A stretch of 64,000 nt of DNA from the IMG/VR virus record IMGVR_UViG_3300025018_000098, positions 32,001-96,000 of that record. One strand, 5' to 3'. The notes beneath the pieces were generated by a model. The model was not told the origin of the DNA, made no database searches, and saw only the letters and a program-made list of their open reading frames with translations. This DNA is from a virus. The position numbers were made by a program, and so were the translations under genes. Shown one piece after another: positions 1,436-63,629 of the stretch. Position 1 is the stretch's first letter. Each line of letters begins with the position of its first letter.

Positions 1436-1453
1436 GCCTATAAGCAACGTGGA
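1436..1453 (+). promoter_or_regulatory. Class A phage promoter motif
   Basis: GCCTATAAGCAACGTGGA; the same 11-mer core occurs at 11149, 54415(-) and 63612. Confidence 0.8.
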
Positions 1454-1460
1454 GACATCT

Positions 1461-1598
1461 ATGGCCAAGAGATCAAATGCATCCAGCAAAAAAGCACAAG
1501 CCGAAAAGGAAAAAGAGGAGCGACCTACCTCGTCCCTCGACGAGTATGAGCGGGAAGTACTGGAGGTACTCGACCACGTAATGGAGGGGCCCAAGTGA
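1461..1598 (+). CDS. Small charged hypothetical protein, 45 aa
   Basis: GGAG SD then ATG 1461 (MAKRSNASSKK...); first gene after class A motif; true start lies inside track ORF 1068..1598. Confidence 0.7.
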   Translation: MAKRSNASSKKAQAEKEKEERPTSSLDEYEREVLEVLDHVMEGPK

Positions 1599-1696
1599 GT
1601 CTGTTCCTGTGGGGAGTCGCTGCAGGCACCTGCCTTGGGATCGTGTCCGCGTTCACCAGACCCCCACCCCCCAAAGGAGGAGCCGATGGAACATGA
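1595..1696 (+). CDS. Small membrane peptide, 33 aa
   Basis: GTGA overlap with upstream stop, GGAGG upstream; MSLFLWGVAAGTCLGIVSAFTRPPPPKGGADGT has a hydrophobic N-terminus; fills the gap between neighbours. Confidence 0.5.
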   Translation: MSLFLWGVAAGTCLGIVSAFTRPPPPKGGADGT

Positions 1697-1985
1697 GGTG
1701 CGCTGCCCCCTATGCGGCGCCGGGATAGAGATCTTCGGGGATCCCAGAAACAATGACCCCCCGACGGATGCTGTCGTCGCACTGCAGGGGCAGTGGCTGT
1801 ACTCGGCGGAGTATCAGACGCCACTCTTCGTCTGTGATCCGGACACAGAGCTGACCGTCATTCAGCTAGCTACTGGACAGCTAGCACTACTGCCCGACAC
1901 CGAGGGCTACCCAACCAAGCACTACCACCATGAATGCCTCTGTGAGGCCACCAGTGAGGACGAGGAAGATGACGACGAAGATTGA
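1686..1985 (+). CDS. Zn-finger-like hypothetical protein, 99 aa, acidic tail
   Basis: SD AAGGAGG; CPLC ... HHEC. Confidence 0.7.
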   Translation: MEHEVRCPLCGAGIEIFGDPRNNDPPTDAVVALQGQWLYSAEYQTPLFVCDPDTELTVIQLATGQLALLPDTEGYPTKHYHHECLCEATSEDEEDDDED

Positions 1986-3099
1986 AGTGAACGCCCCGGC
2001 CAAGGGCTACCAGGACGTGCGAGCGATTGTGCTCGAGGAGCTGCGGGCACAAGAGAAGCACCAGCATCTGTTCATCCCAGGGGTGTTCGGCCCTCCGGGG
2101 ATCGGCAAGTCCGACATGATGTTGGACATCTGCATCGAGCTGCAGCGCACCTTCCGCCCCCAGAACACCGGGGACAACTCGGACCCCTCCGACATCGCAG
2201 GCATCGCAGTGCCTCAAGGATTGTTGGAGGCGTACGGGAACCAGTACGCCAAGACCGCGGCGGACACCAACGCGCTACGTACCCCCGAGGTGCAGAAGAT
2301 TGTGTGGGCCTTGAACCGAGCTGCGGCAGAGGCCTGCGAAGAGGCGGTCATGTTGTTCTTCGATGACATCGACAAGGCTCCTCCGATCGTAGCGGCAGGG
2401 CTCGTGGGCCTCTTCGGCACACGCTCCTTCCGAGACTACCGGCTGCACAAGGACTCGCTGCTCGTAGCTGCCGGTAACAGGCTTGGAGATGATGTCCTGG
2501 CCAGTGAGATGAGCGAGTCGCTGCGAGGGCGCATGACCATCATCGAGCTCGTTCCCAACCTCAAGGACTTTGTCGGCTTCGCGAAGGAGAACCCGGACGA
2601 CGTTCACCCTGCAGTCGTCACGTTCCTGCAGGCGTACCCCGAGTACCTGTTCGCCCTGCCCAAGGAGGGTGAGTACCGCAACCCCAACCCTCGCTCATAC
2701 GTCGAGCTCTCTCGGCTGCTGTATGACATCCCGGAGTCGCGCTGGGATGGGGCAGTGGCACGCAAGGTCGGGCAGAGCACCGCAGTCACTTGGAAGAAGT
2801 GGTTCAACATCCTGGCCAAGATCGACCTCAACGCCATCCTGTACCAGGGTGAGCTCCCCAAGGAGGAGAATCCTCTGAAGGCACGGCAGCTCAACTACGG
2901 GGCCATGTTCCGGCTTCTGCAGCACATCGTAACCAGCGAGATCAAGGAGGGCTGGACCGGTCTCGAGAAGTTCATCGGCAGCTTGGAGCCCGAGTTCCGG
3001 GTCGCCATGCTCGTCCAAATCCCACAGGCAAAGCGAAGCCAGCTCGCGTCCAAGTACGAGGGTGCAGCTGAGCTCATCATGGAGACTCTGATCAAATGA
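1969..3099 (+). CDS. MoxR-like AAA+ ATPase
   Basis: Walker A GPPGIGKS, Walker B LFFDDID, sensor-1 AAGN, Arg finger LRGRM, sensor-2 NPRSY; adjacent VWA partner. Confidence 0.88.
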   Translation: MTTKIEVNAPAKGYQDVRAIVLEELRAQEKHQHLFIPGVFGPPGIGKSDMMLDICIELQRTFRPQNTGDNSDPSDIAGIAVPQGLLEAYGNQYAKTAADTNALRTPEVQKIVWALNRAAAEACEEAVMLFFDDIDKAPPIVAAGLVGLFGTRSFRDYRLHKDSLLVAAGNRLGDDVLASEMSESLRGRMTIIELVPNLKDFVGFAKENPDDVHPAVVTFLQAYPEYLFALPKEGEYRNPNPRSYVELSRLLYDIPESRWDGAVARKVGQSTAVTWKKWFNILAKIDLNAILYQGELPKEENPLKARQLNYGAMFRLLQHIVTSEIKEGWTGLEKFIGSLEPEFRVAMLVQIPQAKRSQLASKYEGAAELIMETLIK

Positions 3100-4313
3100 T
3101 TGTTCCCGGACCCGACGCGGAAGTGCATCAAATCATAGATTCGGCAGCGACCGAGCTGGTGGTGCGCTTCCCATTGGCCGGGCTCTCCCTTTACGGGAGG
3201 GCCGTGGTCATACGACAACAAGGCGACTGCCCCACAGCCGCAACAGACGGGCGCAATATTCTTTGCGGCCCAGACTTCCTACGGGAGATGTACACAACAA
3301 GTGGAACCGGCGGTGTCACCTTCGTGCTCTTGCATGAGTGGGCGCACATCTTTTTCAACCACGTCGGACGTAGGGGAGATCGCCTACCCAAGATCTGGAA
3401 TATCGCCGCGGACCTCTACACGAATCAGCAGTGCGAGGACATCCTCGTCACCAAGACACCTGGTGGTGGGGTAAAGCCAGAACCTCAGTACATCGGCAAG
3501 ACTGTCGAAGAGATCTACGACATGCTGCTGGATACAGCTTCCAAGAGGAACCCAGAGGATCCCGAGAAGGGGATCGAGGAGGCGATGAAGGGGGAGTCCA
3601 AGCCAGAGAACTTTGGGAGCGGGGCTGACTTGCTGCCTCCCTCTACCGACATCGAGGACGTGGCAGAGACGGATGCCTTCCGGGAGGGGTTCATCGAAGA
3701 GCTGCTCGAGAACCAGTCCCTCATGGAAATGAACCCCACGGCCAAGCTCCCCACGGCGTTCAGAGAACGCTTTGAGCAGCTCAAGGACGGCCGAGTCCCC
3801 TGGGAGCGACTCATCATGGGTCGGGTCATGGCCGAGCTCGGGCACGACTGCGCCACGTACTCACCCCCCAACCGCAGGAGGCACTACCCCCTTGTGATCT
3901 CACCCTCGTACCGGGCCCTGAAGGAGCGCAAGCTCATGTTGGCCATCGATGTGTCCTACTCCGTGGGACAGGATCTCATGAGGCTCTTCATCTCTTCGGT
4001 CACCAACGCGGCCAAGCGAGCCACAGAGACACGCATCGTCACCTTCGACTCCTGCATTCGAGAGGACTACATCACACAGGACCCTGGGAGTATCCTCAAG
4101 AACATTCGGTTCATCTCTGGGGCACACTCCCACACGAGCGTCGTGGATGTCTTCAGTATCGTGGACACGTACAAGCCGCGGAGCCTCGCAGTCCTTACGG
4201 ATGGCTTCGTACGACTGCCAAGCAAGACATACCCGCGCACGATGTGGCTCATCCCACGTGGGGGGTGCCCTCAATCCTGGGGAACGAACTACACACTGGA
4301 CATTGCATGGTGA
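3096..4313 (+). CDS. HEXXH metallopeptidase-like + VWA domain protein (DUF2201-type)
   Basis: TAATDG, HEWAH, WNIAAD; C-terminal MIDAS-like DVSYS and LTDG; ATGA-coupled to the ATPase. Confidence 0.85.
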   Translation: MIVPGPDAEVHQIIDSAATELVVRFPLAGLSLYGRAVVIRQQGDCPTAATDGRNILCGPDFLREMYTTSGTGGVTFVLLHEWAHIFFNHVGRRGDRLPKIWNIAADLYTNQQCEDILVTKTPGGGVKPEPQYIGKTVEEIYDMLLDTASKRNPEDPEKGIEEAMKGESKPENFGSGADLLPPSTDIEDVAETDAFREGFIEELLENQSLMEMNPTAKLPTAFRERFEQLKDGRVPWERLIMGRVMAELGHDCATYSPPNRRRHYPLVISPSYRALKERKLMLAIDVSYSVGQDLMRLFISSVTNAAKRATETRIVTFDSCIREDYITQDPGSILKNIRFISGAHSHTSVVDVFSIVDTYKPRSLAVLTDGFVRLPSKTYPRTMWLIPRGGCPQSWGTNYTLDIAW

Positions 4314-5873: not shown

Positions 5874-5874
5874 G

Positions 5875-11107: not shown

Positions 11108-11114
11108 GCCGACA

Positions 11115-11144
11115 AGGATACGCCGGGCGCCACAACGAGGTCAA
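11115..11144 (-). promoter_or_regulatory. Class B promoter TTGACC-N18-TATCCT, 7 nt before ATG 11107
   Basis: Same -35 and spacing as the rpoB-like promoter; no SD. Confidence 0.72.
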
Positions 11145-11148
11145 CGCC

Positions 11149-11166
11149 GCCTATAAGCAATGTGAA
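11149..11166 (+). promoter_or_regulatory. Class A promoter heading the replication operon
   Basis: GCCTATAAGCAATGTGAA. Confidence 0.8.
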
Positions 11167-25985: not shown

Positions 25986-26509
25986 GGACGAAGAGCGGTA
26001 AGCCTCTTCTCGCACAACCCTCCGCTCCTGTCAGGGCGGAGGGCACCCCCGTGCTGGTTGTAGAGACTACCCTAAGCTCGCCGCCTCCAGTGTCCATCAA
26101 CGACGCCTACACAACCTTCCGCGGGAAGCGCAACCTCACGGCTGCAGGAAGGCACTACAAAGATGCGCTAGGGGCCGCCATCGGGAGCGCCACCCTCGAC
26201 TGGAAAACGGGGCATGACGCGATCTATAAGCAAGGTGGATGGGCAACACTGGAAGCCCATCTGTACCTGACCAGTCTGCGCAACGCGGCCTGGATTCCTG
26301 GAGGCAGCAAGACCAAGGGCGGCAAAGAGCGGCAACCCTGGAAGGTTCAGGATGCCTCGAACTACGTGAAGCTTCTCGAAGACGCCGTGGCCAGCGGGTC
26401 CGGCATCGACGACTGCAACACCATGCGGGTCTGTGTCCAAAAGCACTTCGACACAACCAATCCCAGGATCTTCATTCGGTACACCATATGGAAAGGGCAT
26501 TATGAATAA
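25982..26509 (+). CDS. rusA: RusA-family endodeoxyribonuclease
   Basis: PPVSIN.AY; DASNYVKLLEDAV....IDD. Confidence 0.82.
   Translation: MRTKSGKPLLAQPSAPVRAEGTPVLVVETTLSSPPPVSINDAYTTFRGKRNLTAAGRHYKDALGAAIGSATLDWKTGHDAIYKQGGWATLEAHLYLTSLRNAAWIPGGSKTKGGKERQPWKVQDASNYVKLLEDAVASGSGIDDCNTMRVCVQKHFDTTNPRIFIRYTIWKGHYE
26222..26239 (+). promoter_or_regulatory. Possible internal class A promoter
   Basis: ATCTATAAGCAAGGTGGA matches the extended consensus except the 5' end; lies within rusA. Confidence 0.45.
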
Positions 26510-27070: not shown

Positions 27071-27686
27071 GAAGGACCCGAGTCAGCTGAAGCAGATCCT
27101 CACCGACCTGGGGGCCCCCCTCACGAAGGAGCAATGGGGAGAGCTCAAGACAACCCGGGACCAGCGCCTGTCGGAGCTGTTCCGGGCGGGCGGATACGCT
27201 GCGCGGGAGTTCATTGGCTTCAGCGTCGATGTTGCGGCCGAGACTGCACTGGAGCTCCAGGCCGAGTTCTTCGAGGAGCCTGCCAAGGGCGCCAAGAAGA
27301 CGGCAGCCAAGGGCAAGTCCGCAGCCAAGGCTTCGGTAACCAAGGCCAAGGCCGCATCGAAGAAGCGCGCGGCGGTGGAGGATGACGAGGACGAAGGTGA
27401 GGAGGAGAGCAGCGGGGGTGCTGCTGACTCCAGCGAGATCGAGGCTGCCCTGGCCTACATCGCGGAGAAGCTGGAGAAGCTGGACCTGCTCGACGAACTG
27501 GCCGAGAAGGTCACCTCCCTCGAGGCGGAGCTTGCCGAGACCAAGTCCTTCGTGCTCGAGACGCACTTCGGGTTCGCCTGTATCGCCCTGGGTGACGAGG
27601 ACATCCGTGCGAGCTTCGAGGACCCGGCCATCTGCGAGGAGATGCTGGGTACTCTGCAGTGCGACGGTGACGACTCGGGAAACTGA
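27051..27686 (+). CDS. Hypothetical protein with K/A-rich and acidic low-complexity linker and coiled coil
   Basis: Strong codon bias; start 27051 or 27057. Confidence 0.75.
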   Translation: MKMSKNKKDPSQLKQILTDLGAPLTKEQWGELKTTRDQRLSELFRAGGYAAREFIGFSVDVAAETALELQAEFFEEPAKGAKKTAAKGKSAAKASVTKAKAASKKRAAVEDDEDEGEEESSGGAADSSEIEAALAYIAEKLEKLDLLDELAEKVTSLEAELAETKSFVLETHFGFACIALGDEDIRASFEDPAICEEMLGTLQCDGDDSGN

Positions 27687-27712
27687 GAGGGCCGGCACCC
27701 CAGGTAGTCGAT

Positions 27713-27898
27713 GTGCTTCCTGGGGTGGTCCCCCTATCCAAGGGGGATCTGATCTACATCAGTTCGTCGGAGCTAGCTGCCATGACGCTGCCCCAGGTTA
27801 GGGCGCAGCTGAAGAAGCTTGGTCTGCCGTACTCAGACGTAGAGACAGTCGGCGCGGGCGTAACCCGCCTCGTAGAGAACGCGCTCACGATCATGTGA
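27713..27898 (+). CDS. Small hypothetical protein
   Basis: Last ORF before terminator; start uncertain. Confidence 0.5.
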   Translation: MLPGVVPLSKGDLIYISSSELAAMTLPQVRAQLKKLGLPYSDVETVGAGVTRLVENALTIM

Positions 27899-27900
27899 GC

Positions 27901-27932
27901 AAAGAGGGAGCCCGAAGGCTCCCTCTTTTTTT
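27901..27932. terminator. Rho-independent terminator, probably bidirectional
   Basis: AAAGAGGGAGC-ccgaag-GCTCCCTCTTT plus T-run, between convergent operons. Confidence 0.9.
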
Positions 27933-27933
27933 G

Positions 27934-28494
27934 CTATAGGATCATGCCCATAGGTCTGTTGAAGTGTGGTCCGCCACGTTTCAACGTGATCTTCGAGAGG
28001 CCGGCTGCGATGGGCGTAGCACCTCGGTGCTGGGCATCTCGAGTAGCGAAATCCCACATACCTTTGACTGGGGTAGGTAGGCCGTAGTCAGCGTACCACC
28101 AGCCCTTCGCATCCCGGAAGATGCACAAGGCGTGTCCCTTCTGCTTACCCTGGGCGTCGATGTACTGGTACCAGCCGAAGTACACGTGAGCGGCGAGGTC
28201 CGACTCCAGGAGCGCCGTGCACCAGTACATGGCGTGGTCATCGCAGTCACCCACCTTCTCTTTGGCGTTGATGCGTCGCTGCGTCTTGGTCGGGTGGTTG
28301 AGTACATCCAAAGCCCCTCGGAGGGGATCCGTCTTGTACATGCGACCGTGGCTCAGAGCCTCCGTGATCTCCGAAGGTGCGCTATACACCGGGATGGTCA
28401 CCTTCTTGCGGGTCAGGAACATGGTGAGCCCGTACCAAAAGCGTACGAAGCCTAGCAGGTACTTGAAGGCAAACCGAGTCAGTTTCTTGCGCAT
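27934..28494 (-). CDS. Transglutaminase-like cysteine protease, candidate endolysin
   Basis: Triad pattern GDCDDHA / GHALC / YADYG; aromatic, hydrophobic N-terminus; last gene of lysis-like cluster. Confidence 0.65.
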   Translation of the reverse strand: MRKKLTRFAFKYLLGFVRFWYGLTMFLTRKKVTIPVYSAPSEITEALSHGRMYKTDPLRGALDVLNHPTKTQRRINAKEKVGDCDDHAMYWCTALLESDLAAHVYFGWYQYIDAQGKQKGHALCIFRDAKGWWYADYGLPTPVKGMWDFATRDAQHRGATPIAAGLSKITLKRGGPHFNRPMGMIL

Positions 28495-28495
28495 A

Positions 28496-28957
28496 TCATC
28501 CTCCTAGAAGCAGGTAGCCGCCGATGACCAGGACGAGGGAGATACCCACTCCGATCACGAAGCCACCAGATGTGGTTCGAAAGAACCCCGGGTTCTGTGC
28601 TCGAGCTAGTCGCTGAGCCAGTGCCCTGTTGTCTTCTCGCAGACCAGCCACCTCCCGTAGGTAGCTCTCCTCGACGAGATCCAGCCGAGTCTGCCAGCTC
28701 TCCTCAGTCAGCCGCAGGGAGTCGACCCGTAGTCGGACTTGCCTCGGAACCTCCGCGGCATACCACTCCAGGCGGAAGGTCCAGCGAATGGCTGTGTCCG
28801 TGTCCAACAGCTGGCCCGAGAACGGCGCAGGCTGCCCCTCACGGAGGGCCACGACCCTATCGACGCCCTCTGGGGTGTTCGGAGGCCTGGGAGCCTCCTG
28901 GGCGGCCCCTGGGAGCGGGAACAGGAGCACACTCAGGAGCAGTAGGGTCCGCCTCAC
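28496..28957 (-). CDS. Spanin-like protein (signal peptide, coiled coil, C-terminal TM helix)
   Basis: MRRTLLLLSVLLFPLPGAA signal; EGQPAPFSGQLL; C-terminal GGFVIGVGISLVLVIGGYLL. Confidence 0.5.
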   Translation of the reverse strand: MRRTLLLLSVLLFPLPGAAQEAPRPPNTPEGVDRVVALREGQPAPFSGQLLDTDTAIRWTFRLEWYAAEVPRQVRLRVDSLRLTEESWQTRLDLVEESYLREVAGLREDNRALAQRLARAQNPGFFRTTSGGFVIGVGISLVLVIGGYLLLGG

Positions 28958-29289
28958 TTCTTACCTGCCTGCAGCATGCGGGTGGTGAGCTCATCTGGAT
29001 TGTCCCGAAGGTCTCGTACCTCAGCCCCCTGATCCTCCTCGAGGCCCTCTCGAGCATTGTCGGATGTCTCCACGAGGTCCTTCAGCTCGAGATCCAATGT
29101 GATCGCCTCAGACGCGAGCTCCCTCTTGCGTCGCTCAGACTCCTTCGAACTGCGCTTGTCTGCATCCTCCAGCGCGTCCACGACCACTGTGCTGGTCTTG
29201 AACAGCAGCAAGAAGGCCGACAGGGAAAGCAGGAGCTTGATCCAGTGCAGCTTGACCCAGGGCCAGGCCGTTTCCTTGAGCCACTTCAT
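28954..29289 (-). CDS. Inner-membrane spanin-like protein
   Basis: N-terminal TM helix followed by charged coiled coil. Confidence 0.5.
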   Translation of the reverse strand: MKWLKETAWPWVKLHWIKLLLSLSAFLLLFKTSTVVVDALEDADKRSSKESERRKRELASEAITLDLELKDLVETSDNAREGLEEDQGAEVRDLRDNPDELTTRMLQAGKK

Positions 29290-29657
29290 GACGCCTCGAT
29301 CAGTCTCTTCACCTTAGTGAAGATGTAATCCGCGAACTGCCCCACCGCAGCGCCCCAACCACCGTAGGTAGCCGCCATTCCCCAGACAGGGTTCGCCCAG
29401 CTCTCTTTGTGGTTGGTGACGTATGTGATCAGGATCTCAGGACGAACAGGCATGATGTTGGCGTAGAGCGCCCCGAGAAACAGCCCGAGCGTAGGTAGCA
29501 GCACGCGGGTGATATACTTGTTGTTCTTGCGCCGCTCTACTCCCATGCGGGTGTCCAGCACCCTCTTGATGAACTGCACAGAGCCCGACACCGCCAGTGC
29601 GAGCACCAGTGACTGCCAGCAAAAGAAGATATAGATAGGATTGTTGGGATCACTCAT
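29286..29657 (-). CDS. Holin-like membrane protein
   Basis: 123 aa, 2-3 hydrophobic segments, basic loop; GGAGG SD. Confidence 0.55.
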   Translation of the reverse strand: MSDPNNPIYIFFCWQSLVLALAVSGSVQFIKRVLDTRMGVERRKNNKYITRVLLPTLGLFLGALYANIMPVRPEILITYVTNHKESWANPVWGMAATYGGWGAAVGQFADYIFTKVKRLIEAS

Positions 29658-29671
29658 GCGCTTCCTCCGTA

Positions 29672-31969
29672 TCAGTCGAGGCTCAGGGAGTTGTCGCCAA
29701 TGATGGTGGCCACACCGGAATCAGAGATGGTCGGAACTCCAGTGCCTGCGCCAGTGTTCGTCACTACATTCCCATCGATGATGCAGTTATCTGCCCCAGC
29801 CAGCACTCTAATGGGGCTGCGTACGGTAGCCCCAGGTGTGAGAATCGAGATGTCGCAGCCGCGCACTTGCCCACGATTCCCCTGCAGGTTCACGACACTT
29901 ATGGCCGGGTCGTAGTCACAACGCACGAAGGCGGCCACCAAACGGCATCGATCGCCGATCTGGATGATCTCCGACCCTGCGGCGAACGCGGCGGGAGGGT
30001 TCCAGGCATATAGGGTCAGGTGGTTGAGGAGAACAGAGTCCCCGATCTGGATGTAGTTGCTGGAGGGGTACACCGTGGGATGAGGCTCGTCGATAGACAG
30101 CCCGTCGATGATGACTGGTTCCTCAGACGAACCGAATGCTGAGATCCAGGTGTAGCTCGAGCAGCGCAGGTCAGCGCCGCCGAGAATGCGCACACCGCGG
30201 TAGGTGCCTGGCCCAAGGATGATAACCGGTTCCGTGAAGTCGAAGCCCCCGACACCTGCTTGGTAGTGAACTACGAGCCCATCTACATCTGCGCTGAAAG
30301 TACGTACGATTGGTACGTCACAGTCCAGCCCGGGGGACCCATTGATGTTGATGATGTTGATGTTCCGCAGTACGAGGCTTGCCCCAGCGACGTAGCCGCC
30401 ACCGCTGATGTCCACCATCTGGGAGTATGTGGATGCAGGATCTGTAGTGTAGGTCAGGCCGTTGTAGTCGATTGTGATGTCACTCATGATCGACTTACGT
30501 CGAGTGTCGGCAGGTCCGTTGAAGTAGAAGTGAACAGCGGGAGAGAGCGCTCCCGAAGTGAACTCGAAGCGGAACCCGTCGACATGCACCGGCCCTGTAC
30601 CTCCGATGGACGCGATCGGGAGGGTAGACAGGTTGGCCGAATCTAGGCTGGCGGGGCCGATCGACATACGGCAGTTGCGGAAGCTCGGGACGCGGAGGGC
30701 GTTTACTGCGGTAGCCCCACCAACGAGGATGCCTCGAGTGCGGACAGCTGGCACTGTGCTCCCCGTCTGGAAGTAGCAGTCGTCGAAAGCTGCGTCAGAC
30801 GTTGCATCGACGTACAGGAGGCCATCCGTCTCAGACTCAAACGAGCACGACCGGAACAGCACGTTGTACGAATCGGTTATGGTGATGAGGGGGATCCCGG
30901 GATCCCCGGTATGGGTGAACCGGCAGTTCTCAAAGAGGATGGGGACCGAGCATCCATCCACCAGTAGGGCAGGTACTGGGTTGACCTCCCGGCCCTCGAA
31001 GGTGCAGTTGCGGAAGACCAGCCCGGACCCACTGGTGAGAGTGGTGAGCAACAAGCAAGCTTCTGCGAGCGTTGATGCAGCTACTGGGGCGGCAAAGGTG
31101 CACCCATCGTAGACACCCTGAGCGTCTGTTCGGCATCGCACTGTGGAGTCAGAGTCTGCAGTACCTCCGATGGAAACGAAGTTGCAGCCGCGCGCCAAGA
31201 GCTGCCCCTGATGCCGAAAACCACCCGCTTCGATCTGGCACCGTTCCAGGATGGTTCCTCCAGTAGTGGTCTCCCAACGAGATGTGGGGGAGCCCGCCCC
31301 TAGCCCCAAGGTCAGGTTCTCCCAATGCCCGTTGAACAACAGAGCGCCCGCATAGGTGGCCGGCGTCAGCAGCTGAGTGACTACTCCGCTACCACCGTGG
31401 GTCTCTCCTACGACCCTCGAGTAGCCCGCCATGATCGTAGGAACGGATGCCGGGAACCGGTAGTTCGTACCTCGACGCACAAAAAAGGTACCCACGCCCC
31501 CGCCGAAGTCCAGGTTTGCCAAGGACAGAACCTCAACAGCATCAGCGCCGTCGTAGTCCCCACCAGTCGAGTCCGTACCATCTGTGAGCACAGCGGTAAA
31601 CGCTCTGCGCTTCACAAGACCATCATTGGCGGCCTGTAGTGCCGTCTGAATCTCAACAGGGGCGCCCAACCCGCCGAGCCCTGTGGTAGTGACTGCCACT
31701 GCGGCGAAGCCTGCGGGATCCACCCCTACTGCAGCTGCTCCTGCCGAGGTGCTGAAGACGTTGATACGTGCGTCTAGGTCCTCGTCGTTCAGTGCAAGGG
31801 CGTACGTGGTGCGGTTCTTGACCGCAGACGTAACCTGCTCCCCGAAGGCGAGCCCGCGGTTAGCCGCTGAGTACGTGGGTGGGGAGGATAGGTCGATGGG
31901 AACCCAGCCCGGATCTCCAGGTACTCCAGCGCCGTTGCCGAAAATCTCTGCCGCAGTCTTGATACTCAT
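29672..31969 (-). CDS. Tail fibre/spike with right-handed beta-helix (pectin-lyase-like) domain
   Basis: Repeated FRNCTF/FENCRF/FRSCSF rungs; N-terminal NRTTYALALNDEDL attachment segment. Confidence 0.75.
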   Translation of the reverse strand: MSIKTAAEIFGNGAGVPGDPGWVPIDLSSPPTYSAANRGLAFGEQVTSAVKNRTTYALALNDEDLDARINVFSTSAGAAAVGVDPAGFAAVAVTTTGLGGLGAPVEIQTALQAANDGLVKRRAFTAVLTDGTDSTGGDYDGADAVEVLSLANLDFGGGVGTFFVRRGTNYRFPASVPTIMAGYSRVVGETHGGSGVVTQLLTPATYAGALLFNGHWENLTLGLGAGSPTSRWETTTGGTILERCQIEAGGFRHQGQLLARGCNFVSIGGTADSDSTVRCRTDAQGVYDGCTFAAPVAASTLAEACLLLTTLTSGSGLVFRNCTFEGREVNPVPALLVDGCSVPILFENCRFTHTGDPGIPLITITDSYNVLFRSCSFESETDGLLYVDATSDAAFDDCYFQTGSTVPAVRTRGILVGGATAVNALRVPSFRNCRMSIGPASLDSANLSTLPIASIGGTGPVHVDGFRFEFTSGALSPAVHFYFNGPADTRRKSIMSDITIDYNGLTYTTDPASTYSQMVDISGGGYVAGASLVLRNINIININGSPGLDCDVPIVRTFSADVDGLVVHYQAGVGGFDFTEPVIILGPGTYRGVRILGGADLRCSSYTWISAFGSSEEPVIIDGLSIDEPHPTVYPSSNYIQIGDSVLLNHLTLYAWNPPAAFAAGSEIIQIGDRCRLVAAFVRCDYDPAISVVNLQGNRGQVRGCDISILTPGATVRSPIRVLAGADNCIIDGNVVTNTGAGTGVPTISDSGVATIIGDNSLSLD

Positions 31970-31987
31970 GTGTTCCTCATCTTCGGG

Positions 31988-32626
31988 CTAGAAGCGCCAG
32001 GTCCACCGTACTTCGATGGCGAACACGCCAGTCTTAGCTACAGCGTTGAAAGTGTCGTAGGCAATCACTTGACCGCCGACCCCAGGATACGCTCCTGCGG
32101 TGCCGTTGGGCAACGACGGGTCTGCAGCACCCTTGAACAGTGCGATCTCTGAGATCGGAACACTGGGGAAGCTGCCTCCACTCAGATCTGTCTGAGAGAA
32201 GATGGCGGAGAAGCGGGTCGAGGTAGCCGTTGGAAAGGTGCCCGGAGTGGTGATCTCTTTCATCCACACATCAGGACCTTCCGTCACCGGAATCGGCCGC
32301 TCGAGGGCGGATACAGCAACATCTACGTCGGTCTGTAGATTGGTACCTGGGTAGGCCAGGCTTAGAGCGCTGCTCCCATCCAAGGCGTCGGCATCGTTCT
32401 GCCGAGTGCCCCCGATGCCAAAACCAATGTACCGAACGATGTCGTCCTGGTGGCGGGTGAAGTTGGCCCCAGCGAAAGCCTGCGCCGAAATGCACTCCGC
32501 CATGAACTGTCGTCCAGCGTTGGTGATGATGTTGTGGCTGCTTCGTGTATCGAGAACCCTGCCCTCCTTGTCCAGGAAGAGCAGGTCAAGATTGAGCCGA
32601 ATATTTACGTCTTCGAGAAGCCTCAT
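31988..32626 (-). CDS. Tail collar/baseplate fibre-attachment protein
   Basis: HNIITNAGR, YIGFGIG, ISEIALF, AYDTF...KT....EVRW pattern. Confidence 0.65.
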   Translation of the reverse strand: MRLLEDVNIRLNLDLLFLDKEGRVLDTRSSHNIITNAGRQFMAECISAQAFAGANFTRHQDDIVRYIGFGIGGTRQNDADALDGSSALSLAYPGTNLQTDVDVAVSALERPIPVTEGPDVWMKEITTPGTFPTATSTRFSAIFSQTDLSGGSFPSVPISEIALFKGAADPSLPNGTAGAYPGVGGQVIAYDTFNAVAKTGVFAIEVRWTWRF

Positions 32627-35600
32627 GGCAGCACATCGTTCCCTTGGTCTATTACCTTGACGGTAGCATAGGTGCCTACTGGAAGGTTGTCGTCGTAGTT
32701 CAGGAAAATCTCCGGCCCTGTGATCACGTAGGTACCGCCTACGAGGGACACAGGTACGAGAGCTTCATCATAGAAGAAGATTGTGTTGTCGTACTCGATG
32801 GGACCACCAGGCCAATCAAACACGATGTACATCTCGATGTAATCCGAGATGCAGTCGACGATGCCATCGTAGAAGGTCGCCCCGTCGTCGTAGGTGGACC
32901 AGATCGTCCCATCCCCGCGGTAATCGTCGTACATGTACGCCCGGCCGCTGGGGCAGCTGCTGTCGTACAGGAACATCGTGAGCGTCATGGAGAGCTCATC
33001 GATGATGTCCACGTCGTCTTCATGTGCGCGGGCACCCAGCAAGAACGGATACGTGTACGTAGGCCTCATCCGAAGCACAAACTGTTGAGCCAGGATGAGG
33101 TTGACTGTGCTCACGAGATCTAGGTTGAACGACAGCGTGAACGTGAAGAACTTCTCGAGCTCTGTGATGATCCCTGAACGTACGAAGGGGATATACCAGT
33201 CTGGGTCATTGATGTAGTCCTGGATCTCAACACCTGTCCCGATCGGAGCAAACTGCTCGATGTCATCCCCTACTGCGTATGGGACTCCTGTGGCAGGATT
33301 GACTTCGATCCCCGAGGTGGTGTCGAGATCCAGAGGGTCCTTCGTGTAGATGTACGTACGGAAGATCTCCGACTGCGTCGGGGTGTTTCCGTCGGCATCC
33401 TGGATGACCAACCGCCCCTTCGTAGGGCTGTAGTCCGCGCGCACTTCGGTAATAGTCCCTGCGTGCTCTGCGAAGGGCTGCCCGAATAGGATCTGAGCTC
33501 CCGTCTTGATCGCCTGTGGGGTCGGGCCCAGCTGCTGTGTGTACAGCAAGCCTGCCACCGCGGAGGGGTAGGAGAAGTCGTCACCAAAGGTTGTCGCATT
33601 CTCCCGCAGGAAGCCTACGAGGCGTCCGAATAGGTTCTGAATGTTCTCGTCGTTGCTGAGCAGCGTCAGCTCCGCCCACAAGATGTCTGGAGGCTCGAGG
33701 TCGGGCTCGATCCACACAGAGTCCCGCCACTGAAGCATGGGCAGCGCAGACTCATCATCCTCACGGTAGAAAGGCTCCAGATAGTAGTCGATGTTCTCCT
33801 TCCACAACGTGGGGTCGAGGTTCGCTGGGATAACCTCCTGCAGCTGCGGCACGCTCTTGACGTCTGCAGGGAGCGAGATGGCCTTTCGGCGCTTGACCCC
33901 CAGGAAGAATAGCTCGTACTCATCCCAATCAAGATAGATCAAGAAGTCCCCGAGGTTGGCTGCTAGCTGCATCCCGCGCTGTGCGACGAGGTCACCCCGT
34001 ACGTCGATGAACGCGCCACTCGAGACCGACTGGACCTCCCCCTTCACAAGGTCTCCTGGGTAGGTTCCCTCGCGCTCGTAGTCCGTAGTGTCCGACAGAA
34101 CTACAGACGGGATGGACCACTCAACCGAGGCATCCGAGGGTAGGCTATCGAACAGCAGAAGCCGCTGGTTCGGGGCAGGGTCTAAAGGGCTGCTCAGGAC
34201 GCGGTCGATTCGGAAGGTCTGTCCGTTATTCAGAACTAGAAGATCTTCCCGCTGTACGCCATGCTCGATCAGGTCGATGCCGACGTCCACACGATACGTG
34301 CGGTCGGTCACCAGGGCTCCGTTGCTGCCTGCGAGATAGTTCCACCCAGCGGCGAGATTCAGACCGGTGGCCGTGCTGGAGGAGTGCACCCGGAAGGGCA
34401 CCGTCGAAGAGCGGAGCCATAGTCGGACGTCCGTAGCCGTGACCACCTTGTCGTAGTAGATGCCGTAGCTGTTGAGTGCTCCGTTCAACTGGGTGTCCAG
34501 AAGAGTTACATCTAGGCCGGACACCGTGACGAGGATCAACCCCGTAGGGCTCGTGGCATCTACGAGCTCGAGCACAAGATCCTCCCCGTTGATCCCAGTG
34601 CCCGTGACTAGGTCAGGCGTGCTTCCGTACAGGAGACCCTTGCGGACAGAGATGGACGCAGTCCCTTCCTCGGGAACCAGGGTCTTGTAGGCCAACCACT
34701 TACGCTGAAGGATGGGCTGTGCATCGCCGATGGAGAAGTTGTAGTGGTACTGCCACGCCTCGAGCAGCTTGCCTCCAAGGATCTGAGCAGTCCCCTTCCA
34801 GAACTCCGAGAACATGCCTCGGTCCTCGACGAGCTCCCAGTCATCCCCCAACCCTTCCCAGAGGAAGTCCGTGTCCGGTTCGATCCCAAACGGTGTTCGA
34901 GCCCCCACTACGTTCACGAGTACTTCAGCTGTCTCCGACAGGCTCTCCCCGTCCCCGACAACCAGAGTGAACCGATATATACCCTGTACGTCTGGCACCA
35001 CGTGGGGAGTCTCTGAAGTGGCCCCCACAAGCAGTGACTGCCGAATGATCCGAAAGGGCTGGTCCGACAGCGTGTCTGGAACGGCATCTACCTCAACTGT
35101 GAGGGTGCCTCCAGGGTTGTCTACCGTTGCGATGTTGTGGCGCCCCCCGAGCACAACGAGCACATCTCCCGGCTGCACCCAGTCAGGAAGCGTTGTGGCT
35201 GGGAAGGATACGAGGGTGGTCGTCCCATCAGCACCGTCGGGTACTGTGGAACATGAAGGACCCTCGAAGACGAAGTCACTGCCGAAGGGCGCGTCCACCG
35301 CCCGCCATGTGTACGTTAGCGGCGCCCCCTCGATGTCAAAACTCGTCCGGCCATCGAGTCGTGCAGCCCGCCCCACCGGAACCACTCGGTCGGGGCCAGC
35401 ATTGGCCGTGGGCGGAAAGTTCGGGATGATCAATCCCGATGCAAGGCGCATGATTCGGTAGTCGAGTGTTACCGGCTCCGAGATGGTCCCCCTGCAAAAG
35501 ACTTTGAACAGATCACCAACCGAGGTCGGGGTGCGTTCAATGGGGATGATGAAGCTGATGCCTGGGAACGCTCCACGAGCATCACCGATAAAGACGTAGG

Positions 35601-46658: not shown

Positions 46659-46664
46659 GGGCCG

Positions 46665-46673
46665 AGTCTACCA
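46665..46673 (-). promoter_or_regulatory. Class B extended -10 (TGGTAGACT)
   Basis: 6 nt before ATG 46658; no SD. Confidence 0.75.
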
Positions 46674-47024: not shown

Positions 47025-47291
47025 TCAGCCCTTCTTGTCCTTGAGGCTCGCGGCGGCCTGCAGAGCACTGCCGATGAAGATGCCAAGCATCCCCGCGGCT
47101 ACTACGTCCTCACCACGAGGGCCCCGCGCCACCATGACGAGGCGTGGCGGGAACATGCTCACCGCCGCGGCCTCCTCTCGGATGAGAGCGTCATCCAGGT
47201 CGCGTCGCGCTTGGCGCAGATCCCGGTCCAGCTGCTCCCTCTTGGCTTCGAGGCAGCGGACTTGAGCTCGGGCTTCGTACTTGTTCATCAT
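47025..47291 (-). CDS. Hypothetical protein, 88 aa (coiled coil plus hydrophobic segment)
   Basis: AAGGA SD; first gene after class A variant. Confidence 0.65.
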   Translation of the reverse strand: MMNKYEARAQVRCLEAKREQLDRDLRQARRDLDDALIREEAAAVSMFPPRLVMVARGPRGEDVVAAGMLGIFIGSALQAAASLKDKKG

Positions 47292-47326
47292 TTGTTGATC
47301 CTTCTGGGCGTAGGCGCCCTGTTTCC

Positions 47327-47344
47327 TTCACCTTGCTCATAGGT
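47327..47344 (-). promoter_or_regulatory. Class A promoter variant
   Basis: ACCTATGAGCAAGGTGAA in intergenic DNA. Confidence 0.65.
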
Positions 47345-47359
47345 GAACGGGACCAAAGA

Positions 47360-47866
47360 TTAGCAATCATCCTCTTCTGACCCGCTCTCCTTAGGTCGAA
47401 AGGCTGCATCTGGGTCTGGTTGAGGATCCAACCCGGTGGCGACGTGCTGAGCACCCTCTGCGCCTGGTGGAGTAGCGGGACTCGAGCTCTCATCTGCTCG
47501 AAATGTTTGTGGGGGATCTGCCTGTGGAGCCTCTCCAGTGATGGTGTGCTGGGCTGACACCTCTCCTGATGCGTCGGGCTGCGGCGCCCACTCATCTAGT
47601 CGTGCAGCCCTGGGAGGATCCGCCTGAGGGTTCTCTCCGGTGGCGAGGTGCTGCGCGGAGATCGGACGCTCATCATCCGGGCAATGGAAGGATGAGAGCT
47701 CTCGAGCGTACCCAGGTCCTGTTGGGTAGAACTGAACCGTAGTGACATCGTACGCGTAGAGCTGTACCTCCGCCAGTTCTACTAGAAGGGTCAGCAGCGC
47801 CGTAGAGTCGTGTTCCAGACCCTGCGTGAGCACGCCTCCCCGGGTGTTGAGGCCCTGCGTGATCAC
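47360..47866 (-). CDS. Protein with three ~33-aa tandem repeats
   Basis: AQHLATGENPQADPP / AQHTITGEAPQADPP / AQHVATGLDPQPDPD. Confidence 0.65.
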   Translation of the reverse strand: MITQGLNTRGGVLTQGLEHDSTALLTLLVELAEVQLYAYDVTTVQFYPTGPGYARELSSFHCPDDERPISAQHLATGENPQADPPRAARLDEWAPQPDASGEVSAQHTITGEAPQADPPQTFRADESSSPATPPGAEGAQHVATGLDPQPDPDAAFRPKESGSEEDDC

Positions 47867-54407: not shown

Positions 54408-54425
54408 TCCAGGTTGCTTATAGGC
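54408..54425 (-). promoter_or_regulatory. Class A promoter upstream of the sigma operon
   Basis: GCCTATAAGCAACCTGGA, intergenic. Confidence 0.78.
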
Positions 54426-54941
54426 TCATTGAGCATCGCGTTTACGAAGAAGGTCTTCTTTGACGTCCTTCGCAGCTTCGCGGATCTTGTTTTGGGCAGC
54501 GTCCGTTTCGTGCTTGCCGATAGTCTTTGCTGCCGCGGAGAACGCCTCGTTGGCGAGGTCCTTACTTCCTATGGAGGTGACCTCCTGTGCCGCCCCGCTG
54601 ATCCTGCGGTTGAGGTTCCCTGGAGTGTCTATAAACCCACGTACCCCACGACTCAGAGACTTCTTCACGGGAGACCGCAGGGCATTCAACGCCGCCTCCT
54701 CTAGTGAGTTGCGGGGCTCGACCCTCTTCTTGACCTTGTTCGTAAACTCCTGAACCTGCGCCCGCTCGTCATCTAGGTCACGGATGTCGAAGGCAATCTT
54801 CCGCAGTTCGTCGGAGAAGCTGTGGAAGACACTCGCCTCCTTACGCTTATCGTGCACCGTCTGGCTCAAGAGTGTTGAGACATTGGTGCTGATCTTGCCC
54901 TTGCGTGACTTGGGCTTTTGGCTGCCGATGCTGAAGACCAT
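54426..54941 (-). CDS. Basic protein, 171 aa, putative internal head protein
   Basis: Start moved to ATG 54941 (class B geometry); FSDELRKIA motif. Confidence 0.65.
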   Translation of the reverse strand: MVFSIGSQKPKSRKGKISTNVSTLLSQTVHDKRKEASVFHSFSDELRKIAFDIRDLDDERAQVQEFTNKVKKRVEPRNSLEEAALNALRSPVKKSLSRGVRGFIDTPGNLNRRISGAAQEVTSIGSKDLANEAFSAAAKTIGKHETDAAQNKIREAAKDVKEDLLRKRDAQ

Positions 54942-59790: not shown

Positions 59791-59796
59791 GGCGCA

Positions 59797-59803
59797 AGTC
59801 TAC
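59797..59803 (-). promoter_or_regulatory. Class B -10 (GTAGACT)
   Basis: 6 nt before ATG 59790. Confidence 0.72.
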
Positions 59804-59804
59804 C

Positions 59805-60011
59805 TCAGATGACCAAGCCCTGCTTGAGGATCCAATCCTTGATCTCCCGAGGGGTAGGCTCGGTGAGGTCCTCTCGAGTGACACGTCGATGAACCTCGGC
59901 TCGGATCAGAACGCCGTAGGCGTCTTCGACCCCTACTGTGTCGTACGCCTTGACGGTGGCCTGCCTTCCGGTGACCCCAAACTTGAGCTCTACCTCTGTT
60001 CGGTCTGCCAT
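59805..60011 (-). CDS. Hypothetical protein, 68 aa
   Basis: GAGGA SD; fills gap. Confidence 0.6.
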   Translation of the reverse strand: MADRTEVELKFGVTGRQATVKAYDTVGVEDAYGVLIRAEVHRRVTREDLTEPTPREIKDWILKQGLVI

Positions 60012-60017
60012 ACTTCC

Positions 60018-63000
60018 TCACTCCGATGCCGGGGGCGGGGTGGTTCCCCCACCCGCGTTTGGGTCTGCTGGGGCATCCGGGCCACCAGCCACAATATTCA
60101 CATTGAGCGTTCCGGTGATGGCTCCCGCGATCTTCTGTAGATGCTGGTTGCGCGCGACACCCAACGGATCACGCCGCTCTGCCGCTGCAGTAGCCCGACT
60201 CTGCGCCGCCTGGGCAAACTCGGCCCGGTGCTCCGTACGGAAGTCAGCCACTGCTCGTTGCGCTTCTGGGTTGTTCGGCTGCTCGGCTAGTCGGCGCATC
60301 AACTCAGAGCTCTGCTGTGCGGTAGCGAGTGCAGCAGAGCCACCACCCAACTGCTCTGCCAACTGCGATTCGTATTCACGCATCGTTCGAGCCGCCCGCT
60401 CGCCCACCTCACCCTCTCGCCCCATGTTCCGTGCAGCGTCTCGAAGCATGCTCCGTGCTCGACGTCCAGACACCTCTTGGCCACCACGACCAGTAAAGGA
60501 CATCTCTCCGACTGTCTGCCCGGTAAGGATTCCCTCTGCGTGCTCCTGTGCCTGCCTCCGACCGCGGCGCCCACCCCCTCCCAAGACCTCCATATCGTTG
60601 GCCCGCTGAGTCGCGGACATCCCTAGTGCACCTAGATTGTTGTCCTGCAGGGCAGCCATCAACTGAGAGTATTCCTCTGAGTTGCGGTCCATACTTCCGA
60701 CAACCTGGTGGAAGTCGCTCTGGGCGGTTTCCCTATCCTCTCGGGAAGATGCACCTTGCAGGCGTCGCAAAGCGTCCTGAGCGGGACCCGTTCCCTCAAT
60801 ACCGCTGAGCGCTTGAATAGCTCCCGCATGGTTCGCCCGCATACGAGCTTGGGCCTCCTGTGCTGCCTGAATGTCAGACTCGCTGAAGCGGGCATTCCGC
60901 AGTTCTGAGGTAGACTCGCCATGTTCTGCGGCTGCCGTGCGGATCTGTTCCTGGAGGCTGGTCATGGCTCCACCGTTGGCACCAGCTCGGTTGCTCATCA
61001 CGCTCATCTGCTCCATCCGTGCCTTGAACGTCTCGCTATCCGCTCCGTCCTCATCAAGAGCCGCGATCGTGTCCCGGTACAGCGCCATGTATTCTTCATT
61101 GTCTTGAAGTGCTGTGAAGTCTTCCCGATTCATGGAGAGGCTGTCTGCCTGCTCGAGCAGCATATCCTCTTCTTCTGTGTTGGCACTCCGTCGGTTGTGG
61201 TGATCAATCGCACCTCGTGCGCGTCGAGACTCTCGCACCCTGCGCCGCCGAGAACTCGCAGCGTGCCCACCCGCAGCGATGAAATCGAGGGAGTCCCTCT
61301 CCTGTGATGCTGCTTCTCCTGCAGGGGTGTTACCCATCAAGCGATCCCAGAAGCTCCCGCCGCCATTCGCCGTGTTGCCCGCATTGATCGAGACGCCGAA
61401 GTCCGTACCCCCCGCTCGAGCAATGGTTGCATCAATGGCATTCCCGCTGAAGCCACCTTCGATACGTCCGTAGATGTCCCCATGACCACCAGCAGCACGG
61501 GCACCGAGACGAGCCATGTTGATGCGGTGTAGCATCTCGCCCTGGCCGATCTCCCCGATGCGCGCCATGTCCGACACGTCTCTGTCTGAGGTCACCATTC
61601 CCATTCGAGCCATTCGCGTCTGCTGCATCTCCTCCAGCAGCCCCTGCTGCGTCATCCCGGTGGGGTCTACTCCGCGCCCGCGCAGGATCGAAGCACGTGA
61701 TGCCCCCGTTTCGAAGAGACCCCGGCTCTCCAGGTCCATGGGGCCCCGGCCACGAGTTCCCGCGCGCTGTGTCGCATCGACGATGTCCCGAAAGTCAGAG
61801 GAGGACGCACTACCAGAGGCTATGCGGCCAGTAATCCTAGACATACCCTCGGACATACCCCCTGTGGTACCTCCGATCATCCGATCCATCATGGCCTCCA
61901 CTCGAGAGGCGAAGCGCGTAGCGAAGCGGGTGCCCATCTCTCGGGCCTTAGTTACGCCAGTCTCATTGGCCAGGCCGTGGCCAAGATGCGACATGAAGGC
62001 ATCGAAAGACCTGTTCTGGGCCATGTCCGACTCGCGGTCAGCACCTCGTTGGCCGCTTTGCCGGGTCGACTCCTCCTGGATGGCGATGTCCCCTTGGTTG
62101 CGGATCAAGCCCATCATCACCTCGGACTCTCGGCGGCCCATATGGAAGCGGCGCTGCATCACGAGGGACCCGAGATCATCCCCCTGAGAGAGAGCTCGGT
62201 CACCGATGGCTGCACGCATCATCCCGATCTGTCCGGCCATCCCACCACGCTCGAGCAGCCCGCCGCGTAGATCTCCCTCTCTGTTGATGAACCGAGCCCG
62301 CCCAATCTGGCTGAGGTTGCTATGAGCATTACGGCGGATGTCGCCGATGCTCATAGACCCCATGAGGAACTGGTTGGTGCGCCCTGCGTCGAGACCTGTG
62401 GCATCGCTGTTGGACAGAGCTGCCAGAGCGTACCGCCCCATAGGCCGCCGGCTGAACTCAGCCGTGCGCTGCATCATGTTCGTCGTGAAGGCTGAGATGG
62501 CATCTGTGCCCGTGAGGCCTCCGGTGGCTTCAGAGAGTGACTCCTTGCTCACGGCACCCATCGTGATAGCCGCCCCGAGCGTTGATGCACCTCGCATGGC
62601 CCCGAAGGCGCCTTGGCGGCCGGTGCCTCCGACAGAGCGGGCGATCTGAGCCCCCTGGGCCGACATCTGCATGGCCTCCGCTCGAGACATGCCTGTGGCC
62701 TGGGTCACCTCACGCACGTTCTTGGCGAACTGCGAGCGGTCCATCTGTCCGAAGATGCCTGAGGTCTTGGCATCCTCTACGAACTTGAGGGCCTCATTGA
62801 GGCTGCCCCCGAGCTCCTTCTGCACAGTCTTCAGCGTATCCAGCATCTGCTTGAACTTGCTGCTGAACTCTCCGACGCTCGAGACCCCCTGGAACATCCC
62901 GGCCTGAGCTCCACCTGAGATCAGGGAGTTGAGCTCGCCCGAGTTGGTCAGGGAGTTGCTTCGGAGCTCCTGATTGATCGCTGCCCCGATACCACCCATC

Positions 63001-63590
63001 TGCTGTTGGCCGAAGCCGCGGCCCATATGCCCCTGACCACCTTGGAAGTTGAAGTTCTGGCGCAGGGTACTGTTCAGCTGAGTCTGGTCTTGGATACCTC
63101 CTGTGAACGCCCCCGCGTATGCTCCCACAGCCTTCGATGCAACGTAGGCAGGCAGCATGGCACCACCGGCCATGGCAAGGCCTCCGGCCATACCCATCAT
63201 ACCCCCACCCATTGCGGTGGACGCACGCATACCGAGGCCTATTGCGGAGAAGGGATCACCAAAGGCCCCCATGGCTCCGGACATCATCAGCCCGGCCCCG
63301 GCCACGGGCATCGCGACGTTACGGCCGAAGGAGCCGATACCCGCAGCCATCCTTTCGCCAGCCATGCCTACATCGCCACCGTACGCCGCCGTGACGGCCA
63401 GGTTTCTGGCGGCTCCGCCCGGGTGCGGCATCGGCATCGGCGGCGGAGGCGGGGGAGGTGCCATCCCTCCTTGACCGCCCGGGCCACCATACGCGGAGTA
63501 GCTCATCTGCTGCGCATACCCAGCATTCTGGGCGAACATGGCGTTACCTGCAGCGATGGACTGCGAGATGTAGCTTGAGTCGTAAGGCAC
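60018..63590 (-). CDS. Tail tape measure protein, 1190 aa
   Basis: Long helical G/A/M/Q-rich protein with hydrophobic Gly-rich segments, upstream of tube initiator and hub. Confidence 0.75.
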   Translation of the reverse strand: MPYDSSYISQSIAAGNAMFAQNAGYAQQMSYSAYGGPGGQGGMAPPPPPPPMPMPHPGGAARNLAVTAAYGGDVGMAGERMAAGIGSFGRNVAMPVAGAGLMMSGAMGAFGDPFSAIGLGMRASTAMGGGMMGMAGGLAMAGGAMLPAYVASKAVGAYAGAFTGGIQDQTQLNSTLRQNFNFQGGQGHMGRGFGQQQMGGIGAAINQELRSNSLTNSGELNSLISGGAQAGMFQGVSSVGEFSSKFKQMLDTLKTVQKELGGSLNEALKFVEDAKTSGIFGQMDRSQFAKNVREVTQATGMSRAEAMQMSAQGAQIARSVGGTGRQGAFGAMRGASTLGAAITMGAVSKESLSEATGGLTGTDAISAFTTNMMQRTAEFSRRPMGRYALAALSNSDATGLDAGRTNQFLMGSMSIGDIRRNAHSNLSQIGRARFINREGDLRGGLLERGGMAGQIGMMRAAIGDRALSQGDDLGSLVMQRRFHMGRRESEVMMGLIRNQGDIAIQEESTRQSGQRGADRESDMAQNRSFDAFMSHLGHGLANETGVTKAREMGTRFATRFASRVEAMMDRMIGGTTGGMSEGMSRITGRIASGSASSSDFRDIVDATQRAGTRGRGPMDLESRGLFETGASRASILRGRGVDPTGMTQQGLLEEMQQTRMARMGMVTSDRDVSDMARIGEIGQGEMLHRINMARLGARAAGGHGDIYGRIEGGFSGNAIDATIARAGGTDFGVSINAGNTANGGGSFWDRLMGNTPAGEAASQERDSLDFIAAGGHAASSRRRRVRESRRARGAIDHHNRRSANTEEEDMLLEQADSLSMNREDFTALQDNEEYMALYRDTIAALDEDGADSETFKARMEQMSVMSNRAGANGGAMTSLQEQIRTAAAEHGESTSELRNARFSESDIQAAQEAQARMRANHAGAIQALSGIEGTGPAQDALRRLQGASSREDRETAQSDFHQVVGSMDRNSEEYSQLMAALQDNNLGALGMSATQRANDMEVLGGGGRRGRRQAQEHAEGILTGQTVGEMSFTGRGGQEVSGRRARSMLRDAARNMGREGEVGERAARTMREYESQLAEQLGGGSAALATAQQSSELMRRLAEQPNNPEAQRAVADFRTEHRAEFAQAAQSRATAAAERRDPLGVARNQHLQKIAGAITGTLNVNIVAGGPDAPADPNAGGGTTPPPASE

Positions 63591-63596
63591 GACGGA

Positions 63597-63603
63597 AGTC
63601 TAC
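63597..63603 (-). promoter_or_regulatory. Class B -10 (GTAGACT)
   Basis: 6 nt before GTG 63590. Confidence 0.72.
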
Positions 63604-63611
63604 ACGATATC

Positions 63612-63629
63612 GCCTATAAGCAGTACGAA
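63612..63629 (+). promoter_or_regulatory. Class A promoter
   Basis: GCCTATAAGCAGTACGAA. Confidence 0.78.

Follow-up and report, generated by a model that had tools for sequence, protein, structure and literature searches.

In a 64,000-nucleotide stretch of viral DNA (the window: positions 32001-96000 of a phage contig of 168,874 bp, IMG/VR record IMGVR_UViG_3300025018_000098, labelled G000 here), six copies of a short motif that we call class A point into genes. We propose, with a probability of about 70%, that this motif is a phage-specific promoter, read by a sigma factor of the phage and probably by its fused RNA polymerase (RNAP), which switches on non-structural genes. The parts of this proposal differ in strength: judged from form and placement, the motif is almost certainly a promoter; recognition by the phage sigma is highly probable; and use of the phage core, rather than that of the host, is probable. 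The initial annotation had described a novel promoter class with a predicted G at +1, and a phage-specific promoter remains the best reading, although the core is shorter than first thought, C is allowed at -9 and the word is found across the lineage. Phage-specific -10 promoters are already known as a kind; this class is real and lineage-wide.

Form and placement of the class A motif

All six 18-mers reported by the initial annotation are present (Table 1), four share the identical 11-mer GCCTATAAGCA, and five lie between genes, the exception being the 26222 copy within a RusA-like gene. The consensus first given, CCTATRAGCAAnnTGRA, is exact in four copies, has one mismatch at 26222 and two at 63612, and is drawn too narrowly. 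What is conserved is CC-TAT[A/C/G]AG-N5-YR, in which five loose bases lead to a pyrimidine-purine (YR) step, T(-1)/G(+1); the remainder is local spelling and ribosome site. A G does lie 7 nucleotides (nt) past TATRAG in every window copy, and in two copies it begins the GGAG that precedes the ATG starts at 1461 and 54400. Among viral contigs there is no exact match to the full-length genome spelling, so the flank of the motif is local.

A position matrix trained on 20 non-coding copies, all outside the window, ranks the six window copies first (17.4-29.9 bits, with the next-best match at 11.1). Across 100 shuffles, matches above 15 bits averaged 0.17 with a maximum of 2, and one shuffle reached 21.6 bits; the first consensus, at three or fewer mismatches, gave 11 matches versus 2.5 +/- 1.3 in shuffles. 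Scanning the whole genome, as had been suggested, brought further copies that are non-coding and oriented toward genes: 27 in the 169-kb genome, 26 of them non-coding (28 matrix sites minus the intragenic TATCAT at 162077). Genes were called by a simple caller that weighs ribosome sites and leaderless boxes, and the counts are thus approximate. In this genome of 60% G+C, the word CTAT[ACG]AG falls in non-coding DNA in 29 of its 48 occurrences, compared with a genome non-coding share of 10%, with only 7 of 115 for the control word CTAC[ACG]AG and with 3 of 14 for CTAT[ACG]AT, which has T instead of G at -7. In a de novo word count, TATAAG came first among the enriched upstream hexamers, with 15 of its 25 occurrences upstream.

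The -10 box, to which the CC forms an extended -10, has T(-12) in 26 of 27 sites and C in the remaining one, takes A, G or C at -9, and carries G where T(-7) is usual. The YR step falls at spacer 6 in 22 of the 27 sites and at spacers 5 and 7 in two each, with the register as we infer it; it is present in 22/23 sites in the cultured Salmonella phage Arash and in 18/21 in the related genome D69. With A(-11) and 6-7 nt to the step, the letters have the geometry expected of a sigma70-family promoter, and the step stays fixed while the distance from motif to start codon ranges from 24 to more than 200 nt. Many copies stand directly 3' of hairpin plus T-run terminators or at divergent junctions. 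The first statement, that no conserved -35 was seen, holds only in part: a weak A-rich box, (G)CNAA, does lie near -32, one base closer than in sigma-28 promoters. AA occupies -32/-31 in 10 of 26 genome sites, and in 250 pooled sites the frequency of A there is 0.55/0.52, compared with about 0.2 elsewhere. The box is clearest, as GCTAA, in six copies spelled TATGAG, that at 47344 among them.

These TATGAG sites (window 47291-47366; G000 20009, 108137, 135385, 147970 and 163951) combine GCTAA near -33 with a GAAGGAA start, and in four of them a short hairpin stands ahead of the ribosome site; the subclass looks like a copied regulatory cassette ahead of orphan genes. For its TTGCT box we considered sigma-54, which we rejected because the GG-N10-GC spacing was not kept in the copies inspected by eye. 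Hidden stop codons in TATRAG were likewise rejected, as the sites are at unit heads and not at gene ends. Elsewhere in the genome two class A promoters stand back-to-back within 14 bp (G000 159418 on the minus and 159431 on the plus strand).

The genes downstream are non-structural, chiefly replication and accessory units. The 1436 copy heads a 45-residue open reading frame (ORF; start 1461) and an AAA-ATPase/vWA-metallopeptidase unit, back-to-back with the RNAP promoter. A counterpart at this position is present in 10 of 11 close RNAP loci and in 41 of the 47 distant ones, near-duplicates among them. Taken together, and with near-duplicates counted, 51 of 58 loci have a site that points away from the polymerase gene, versus 7 for the opposite-strand control and 2 for the coding control. 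The 11149 copy heads a replication module (helicase, UDG, DnaB, primase, Pol A, RecA and resolvase), and a site precedes the ortholog in all five close relatives. The 63612 copy leads into an 81-residue ORF and a dNMP kinase, the 54425 copy into a 131-residue ORF (54400) and the sigma gene, and the 47344 copy into three short ORFs (47291 down to 46716), for which no ortholog of the downstream gene was found in the five relatives. Genome-wide, class A sites precede gyrase B as well as the AAA/vWA unit, the replication module, the dNMP kinase and the sigma gene, and also an extended series of small ORFs at 116-160 kb.

Conservation is tested most sharply by the copy within the RusA-like gene (26222), whose predicted start lies 510 nt before the next start codon (26747). 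Four of five close relatives retain an intragenic CTAT[A/C]AG through the rare tyrosine codon TAT (3-17% of tyrosines), and in G005 the motif is intact despite a lysine-to-glutamine change; because it survives an amino-acid change, we take selection to act on the DNA. Class A also heads stretches with no called gene (G000 153825-153937, minus strand, which ends in a stem and T run, and 163965-164130, plus strand), which are therefore candidate small RNAs. In the one RNA run compared, no contig matched over 18.5 kb, which speaks neither for nor against expression.

Conservation extends well beyond this contig. We compared 11 other long genomes (G001, G005, G007, G009, G011, G013, G014, G015, G018, D69 and Arash; G006, G008, G010, G012, G016, G017 and G019 did not enter the comparison), and in all 11 a variant of the motif is the top upstream word other than the ribosome site. 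It is spelled CTAT[ACG]AG in G001, G005, G007 and G009, GGTATAAG in G013, G014 and Arash, GTTATAAG in D69, and GG[G/C]ATAA[G/C] in G011, G015 and G018. The pattern G[GT]TATAAG-N5-YR occurs 31 times in Arash, 30 of them on the non-structural strand (control 1), and 22 times in D69 (control 5). It shows no enrichment in a 501-kb Salmonella contig (3, control 11), nor does it exceed the control in two RNAP phages without a match to the sigma (1 and 0). On absence of the motif from the host, which the initial annotation had proposed to check, the Arash spelling is unenriched in DNA of Salmonella, the host of Arash. Four genome bins with distant relatives (36-38%), from three different groups plus one unclassified bacterium, had no motif excess. 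As a separate observation, the YR step lies one base nearer the -10 box in G001, G004, G007 and G009 (17/21 sites in G009 and 20/24 in G007) than in the present phage or in Arash, and G001, G007 and G009 form one sigma clade.

The phage sigma factor and the fused polymerase

The genome encodes one polymerase, which carries Rpb2 and Rpb1 domains in a single 2059-residue chain with the catalytic NGDIDGD intact, and one sigma70-family factor, P0001; family scans returned no match for an alpha-subunit gene. P0001 by itself has no Pfam match, but 93 of 114 members of its family match Sigma70_r3, and its profile finds sigma factors in the PDB at E about 1e-18, including FliA (6pmi) and WhiG-length 6pfv. 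Its model has a predicted local distance difference test (pLDDT) score of 90, SigD is the top Foldseek match, and all 50 matches listed are sigma models or chains. The family is without the tryptophan pair of region 2.3, by sigma70 numbering.

Sigma and polymerase travel together. The polymerase has at least 256 relatives. Of the long relatives found through the polymerase, 14 of 15 carry the sigma, as do 9 of 9 complete ones. The only cultured phages matched by the sigma, Arash and three Vibrio phages, are the top four RNAP matches. The Arash ortholog, gp10 (E 2e-17), lies in the same neighbourhood, and in both phages the sigma gene is inside the structural gene cluster. Table 2 of the Arash paper lists 128 peptides for beta, the most abundant protein of the particles, 40 for beta' and 24 for gp10, and a second sigma, gp196, is missing from that virion table (PMC10585845). 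Sigmas of the gp196 type occur only in Arash and D69 and in none of 10 uncultured genomes (G004 being a fragment without either sigma).

A predicted complex of the sigma with the polymerase clamp scores 0.73, compared with 0.00 for the best control; 116 of 157 solved pairs pass the threshold applied here, as do 2 of 215 mismatched ones, with runs agreeing on at least 50% of contacts and a partner pLDDT of at least 68. Sigma residues 74-89 (region 2.2) are placed on clamp-helix residues 1200-1236, a textbook interface that may echo solved holoenzymes, so the prediction speaks for compatibility only. Five genomes have CC at -14/-13 together with D or E at sigma position 115, and seven have G[G/T] together with R (the G004 fragment was left out). 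An acidic residue is implicated in the reading of -13C by sigma32 (PMC6687850), and position 115 may be the matching place; this covariation only fits the model.

Class B promoters, timing and alternative readings

In a second class, class B, a TAnnnT box stands 6 or 7 nt ahead of the start codons of structural-region genes and of the polymerase gene. With T at -7 and a TTGACA-like -35, its boxes are of the type that host sigma70 is predicted to read; TTGACC lies 18 nt upstream only for the polymerase gene and one other class B gene, and the spacing of the polymerase promoter is conserved in 10 of 11 close loci. The (TG)GTAGACT-like boxes also predict leaderless mRNAs for structural genes and polymerase, and on the structural strand Arash and D69 have TAAAATA in place of class B. 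In the present phage one site of each class precedes the sigma gene; a class A site stands within 420 nt upstream of sigma in all five close-clade genomes and in G018.

From this arrangement we would picture the following cycle. Transcription of the class B structural genes would fall to host sigma70, and these host-type units would yield polymerase and sigma along with the virion proteins; both would be packaged and then injected, and the injected holoenzyme would transcribe the class A replication and accessory genes early. The class A site before sigma would boost sigma in a positive feedback. We rate delivery in the virion followed by early action at even odds. The main competitor on timing, which leaves promoter and reader as proposed, is that host sigma70 first transcribes the polymerase gene and the new enzyme then fires class A; the polymerase gene does have the most complete host-type promoter, and replication genes, which class A drives, usually belong to the middle class. 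The dominance of polymerase in Arash particles and the position of sigma within the structural cluster in both phages argue the other way, and we regard middle timing as the less likely course.

Several observations count against the proposal as a whole. The motif is looser in G015 and G018, its intragenic copy is lost in G007, and the 63612 counterpart is missing from G009. A search out to 700 nt from sigma found no class A site in G011, G013, G014 or D69, and the candidates in Arash and G015 are doubtful. Primase and reductase are among the 116 proteins on the Arash virion list, whose authors accept that contamination is possible (PMC10585845). The complex prediction cannot tell phage core from host core. 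The mapping of sigma position 115 is uncertain by one position, and its covariation with -13 is a single change on the tree and hence not independent evidence.

The alternative that survives best keeps the promoter and the phage sigma but has them work on the host core, the phage polymerase serving another class, such as the structural genes. SPO1 gp28 and T4 gp55 are phage sigmas that act on host core. P0001 keeps regions 2-4, and a sigma of this kind could bind the core of any bacterium; recruitment of host core by phage sigmas is common by the account in PMC7824862. The lack of a second sigma in the uncultured genomes means that something else must read class B, which also counts for this view. 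Set against it are the joint occurrence of sigma and polymerase, both found in Arash particles, the sigma-binding clamp helices retained by the polymerase and the host-type TTGACC/TAnnnT boxes of class B; we consider host core unlikely.

Recognition by a host sigma, either an alternative sigma-28/FliA-like factor or a primary sigma tolerating the missing T(-7), is improbable. The word GCCTATAA is one base off the sigma-28 box GCCGATAA (PMC2859248), a TAA(A) box lies near -33, and G011, G015 and G018 have GGGATAA. However, no copy has the whole octamer (the best reach 7/8), and the motif has neither the T(-7) nor the TTGACA-like -35 of sigma70/sigmaA promoters, with no TTGAC in its consensus. 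G(-7) is in neither host consensus and -9 is free here; the spelling tracks the phage sigma clade, and GGTATAAG is unenriched in Salmonella, which Arash infects.

Least probable of all is a site for a repressor (like stoperators, a type of repressor site) or an element acting in RNA or translation, since the motif, although asymmetric, transcription-oriented, close to start codons and merging with Shine-Dalgarno sequences, varies in distance to the start codon with the YR step fixed, sits at unit heads and in the 159418/159431 pair, and precedes tRNA-Asn in Arash and, by 42 nt, tmRNA in G001, which argues against a role in translation, and scans of 212 proteins against PHROG and Pfam found no repressor or integrase.

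Table 1. Promoter sites and transcription genes in the window (window coordinates unless marked G000).
Feature	Position	Strand	Details
Fused beta-beta' RNAP gene, 5' end	1..1370	-	2059 residues; G000 27191-33370
Class B, RNAP gene	1371..1406	-	TTGACC-N18-TAGACT-N6-GTG; predicted leaderless
Class A	1436..1453	+	-10 TATAAG 1439-1444; predicted +1 G 1451
Class B	11108..11144	-	TTGACC-N18-TATCCT-N7-ATG; start 11107; back-to-back with the 11149 copy
Class A	11149..11166	+	-10 11152-11157; predicted +1 11164
Class A, intragenic	26222..26239	+	In RusA-like gene 26051-26509, codons Y-K-Q-G-G; predicted +1 26237
Class B, extended -10	46659..46673	-	TGGTAGACT-N6-ATG before structural-region gene (start 46658)
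Class A, TATGAG subclass	47327..47344	-	TTGCTAA at about -37..-31 (47366-47360); predicted +1 47329; hairpin leader
Sigma70-family factor P0001	53194..54003	-	269 residues, regions 2-4; ortholog of Arash gp10
Class A	54408..54425	-	Directly after stop at 54426; predicted +1 54410
Class A	63612..63629	+	Predicted +1 63627; overlaps divergent class B promoter
TAnnnT boxes		-	Before starts 8642, 36072, 41420, 52478, 58549, 59790, 63590

Other features noted include a PAS histidine kinase and response regulator within a phage operon (G000 102879-105530; L003), an intein/LAGLIDADG-containing gene near the capsid cluster (L001:12298-15639), a Tad2-like anti-Thoeris domain (L003:14042-14446), a WYL protein (L004:18523-19227) and a protein with an inorganic pyrophosphatase domain (L006:10233-11435). 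AT-rich repeats of the TAACTAAC/TTAGTAAG type (G000 161300-161480, 163850-163900 and 135410-135440) are a possible origin or protein-binding array.

Significance and relation to known systems

To our knowledge, the multisubunit polymerases of phages characterised so far work with factors that are not related to sigma, and phage sigmas rely on the core of the host. If our proposal is true, a phage that has polymerase and sigma together with a defined promoter would show how a stripped-down core works with a sigma and how a -10 box with G(-7) is read, and could offer a compact orthogonal transcription system. More tentatively, we suggest that this lineage packages and injects a minimal holoenzyme of bacterial type (one-chain beta-beta' plus sigma) with a private sigma-28-like G(-7) early promoter, raises the level of its sigma and relies on host-type promoters for late genes, the reverse of the order in SPO1 and T4, with spelling that shifts with sigma residues as a natural recognition code. 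Because Arash is in culture and carries the word and both proteins, the prediction can be tested there: about 30 transcripts should start at the purine of GGTATAAG-N5-TR. We found no published description of this promoter in a search that lay mostly outside subscription journals and did not cover supplements. The word 'promoter' is absent from the Arash paper (PMC10585845), and the main text of the report on multisubunit-RNAP-encoding Caudovirales (mReC) contains neither 'sigma' nor 'promoter' (PMC7481178).

The mReC phages resemble this one as tailed phages with alignable beta and beta', but here the subunits are fused and, against the marker families described in PMC7481178, capsid and terminase differ. 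In place of PF07068 and PF03237, the capsid has no Pfam match (phrog_2522) and the terminase matches PF05876; we therefore do not file the phage under mReC. The T4 late promoter TATAAATA, read by gp55, is likewise a TATAA word dominated by the -10 and read by a phage sigma, but it serves late genes with host core and a truncated sigma, whereas class A heads non-structural genes. Closer in form are sigma-28 (FliA/SigD/WhiG) promoters, with the consensus TAAAGTTT-n11-GCCGATAA (PMC2859248): in both, CC or GC stands ahead of a composite -10 whose A-T-A-A core lacks T(-7), and the sigma has only regions 2-4; a box rich in A near -32 may be a further likeness. Class A is set apart by T(-12), an invariant G(-7), a -9 that is free within the clade, a weak upstream box one base closer and a reader predicted to be phage-encoded.

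In role, the early promoters of phiKZ and AR9 are comparable, being short conserved AT-rich words at about -10 before early operons in phages with their own multisubunit polymerase, as outlined in PMC7598289. Those phages, by the summary in PMC7824862, have two split polymerases and no sigma homolog, whereas here one fused beta-beta' chain is paired with a sigma70-family factor. Phage N4 uses its virion RNAP early and host RNAP late (PMC13434306), so that, in the order we propose, both would assign a phage enzyme to non-structural genes and host-type promoters to virion genes. The N4 virion enzyme, however, is T7-like and reads hairpin promoters, whereas the phage described here would employ a two-barrel enzyme with a sigma and a linear -10 box.

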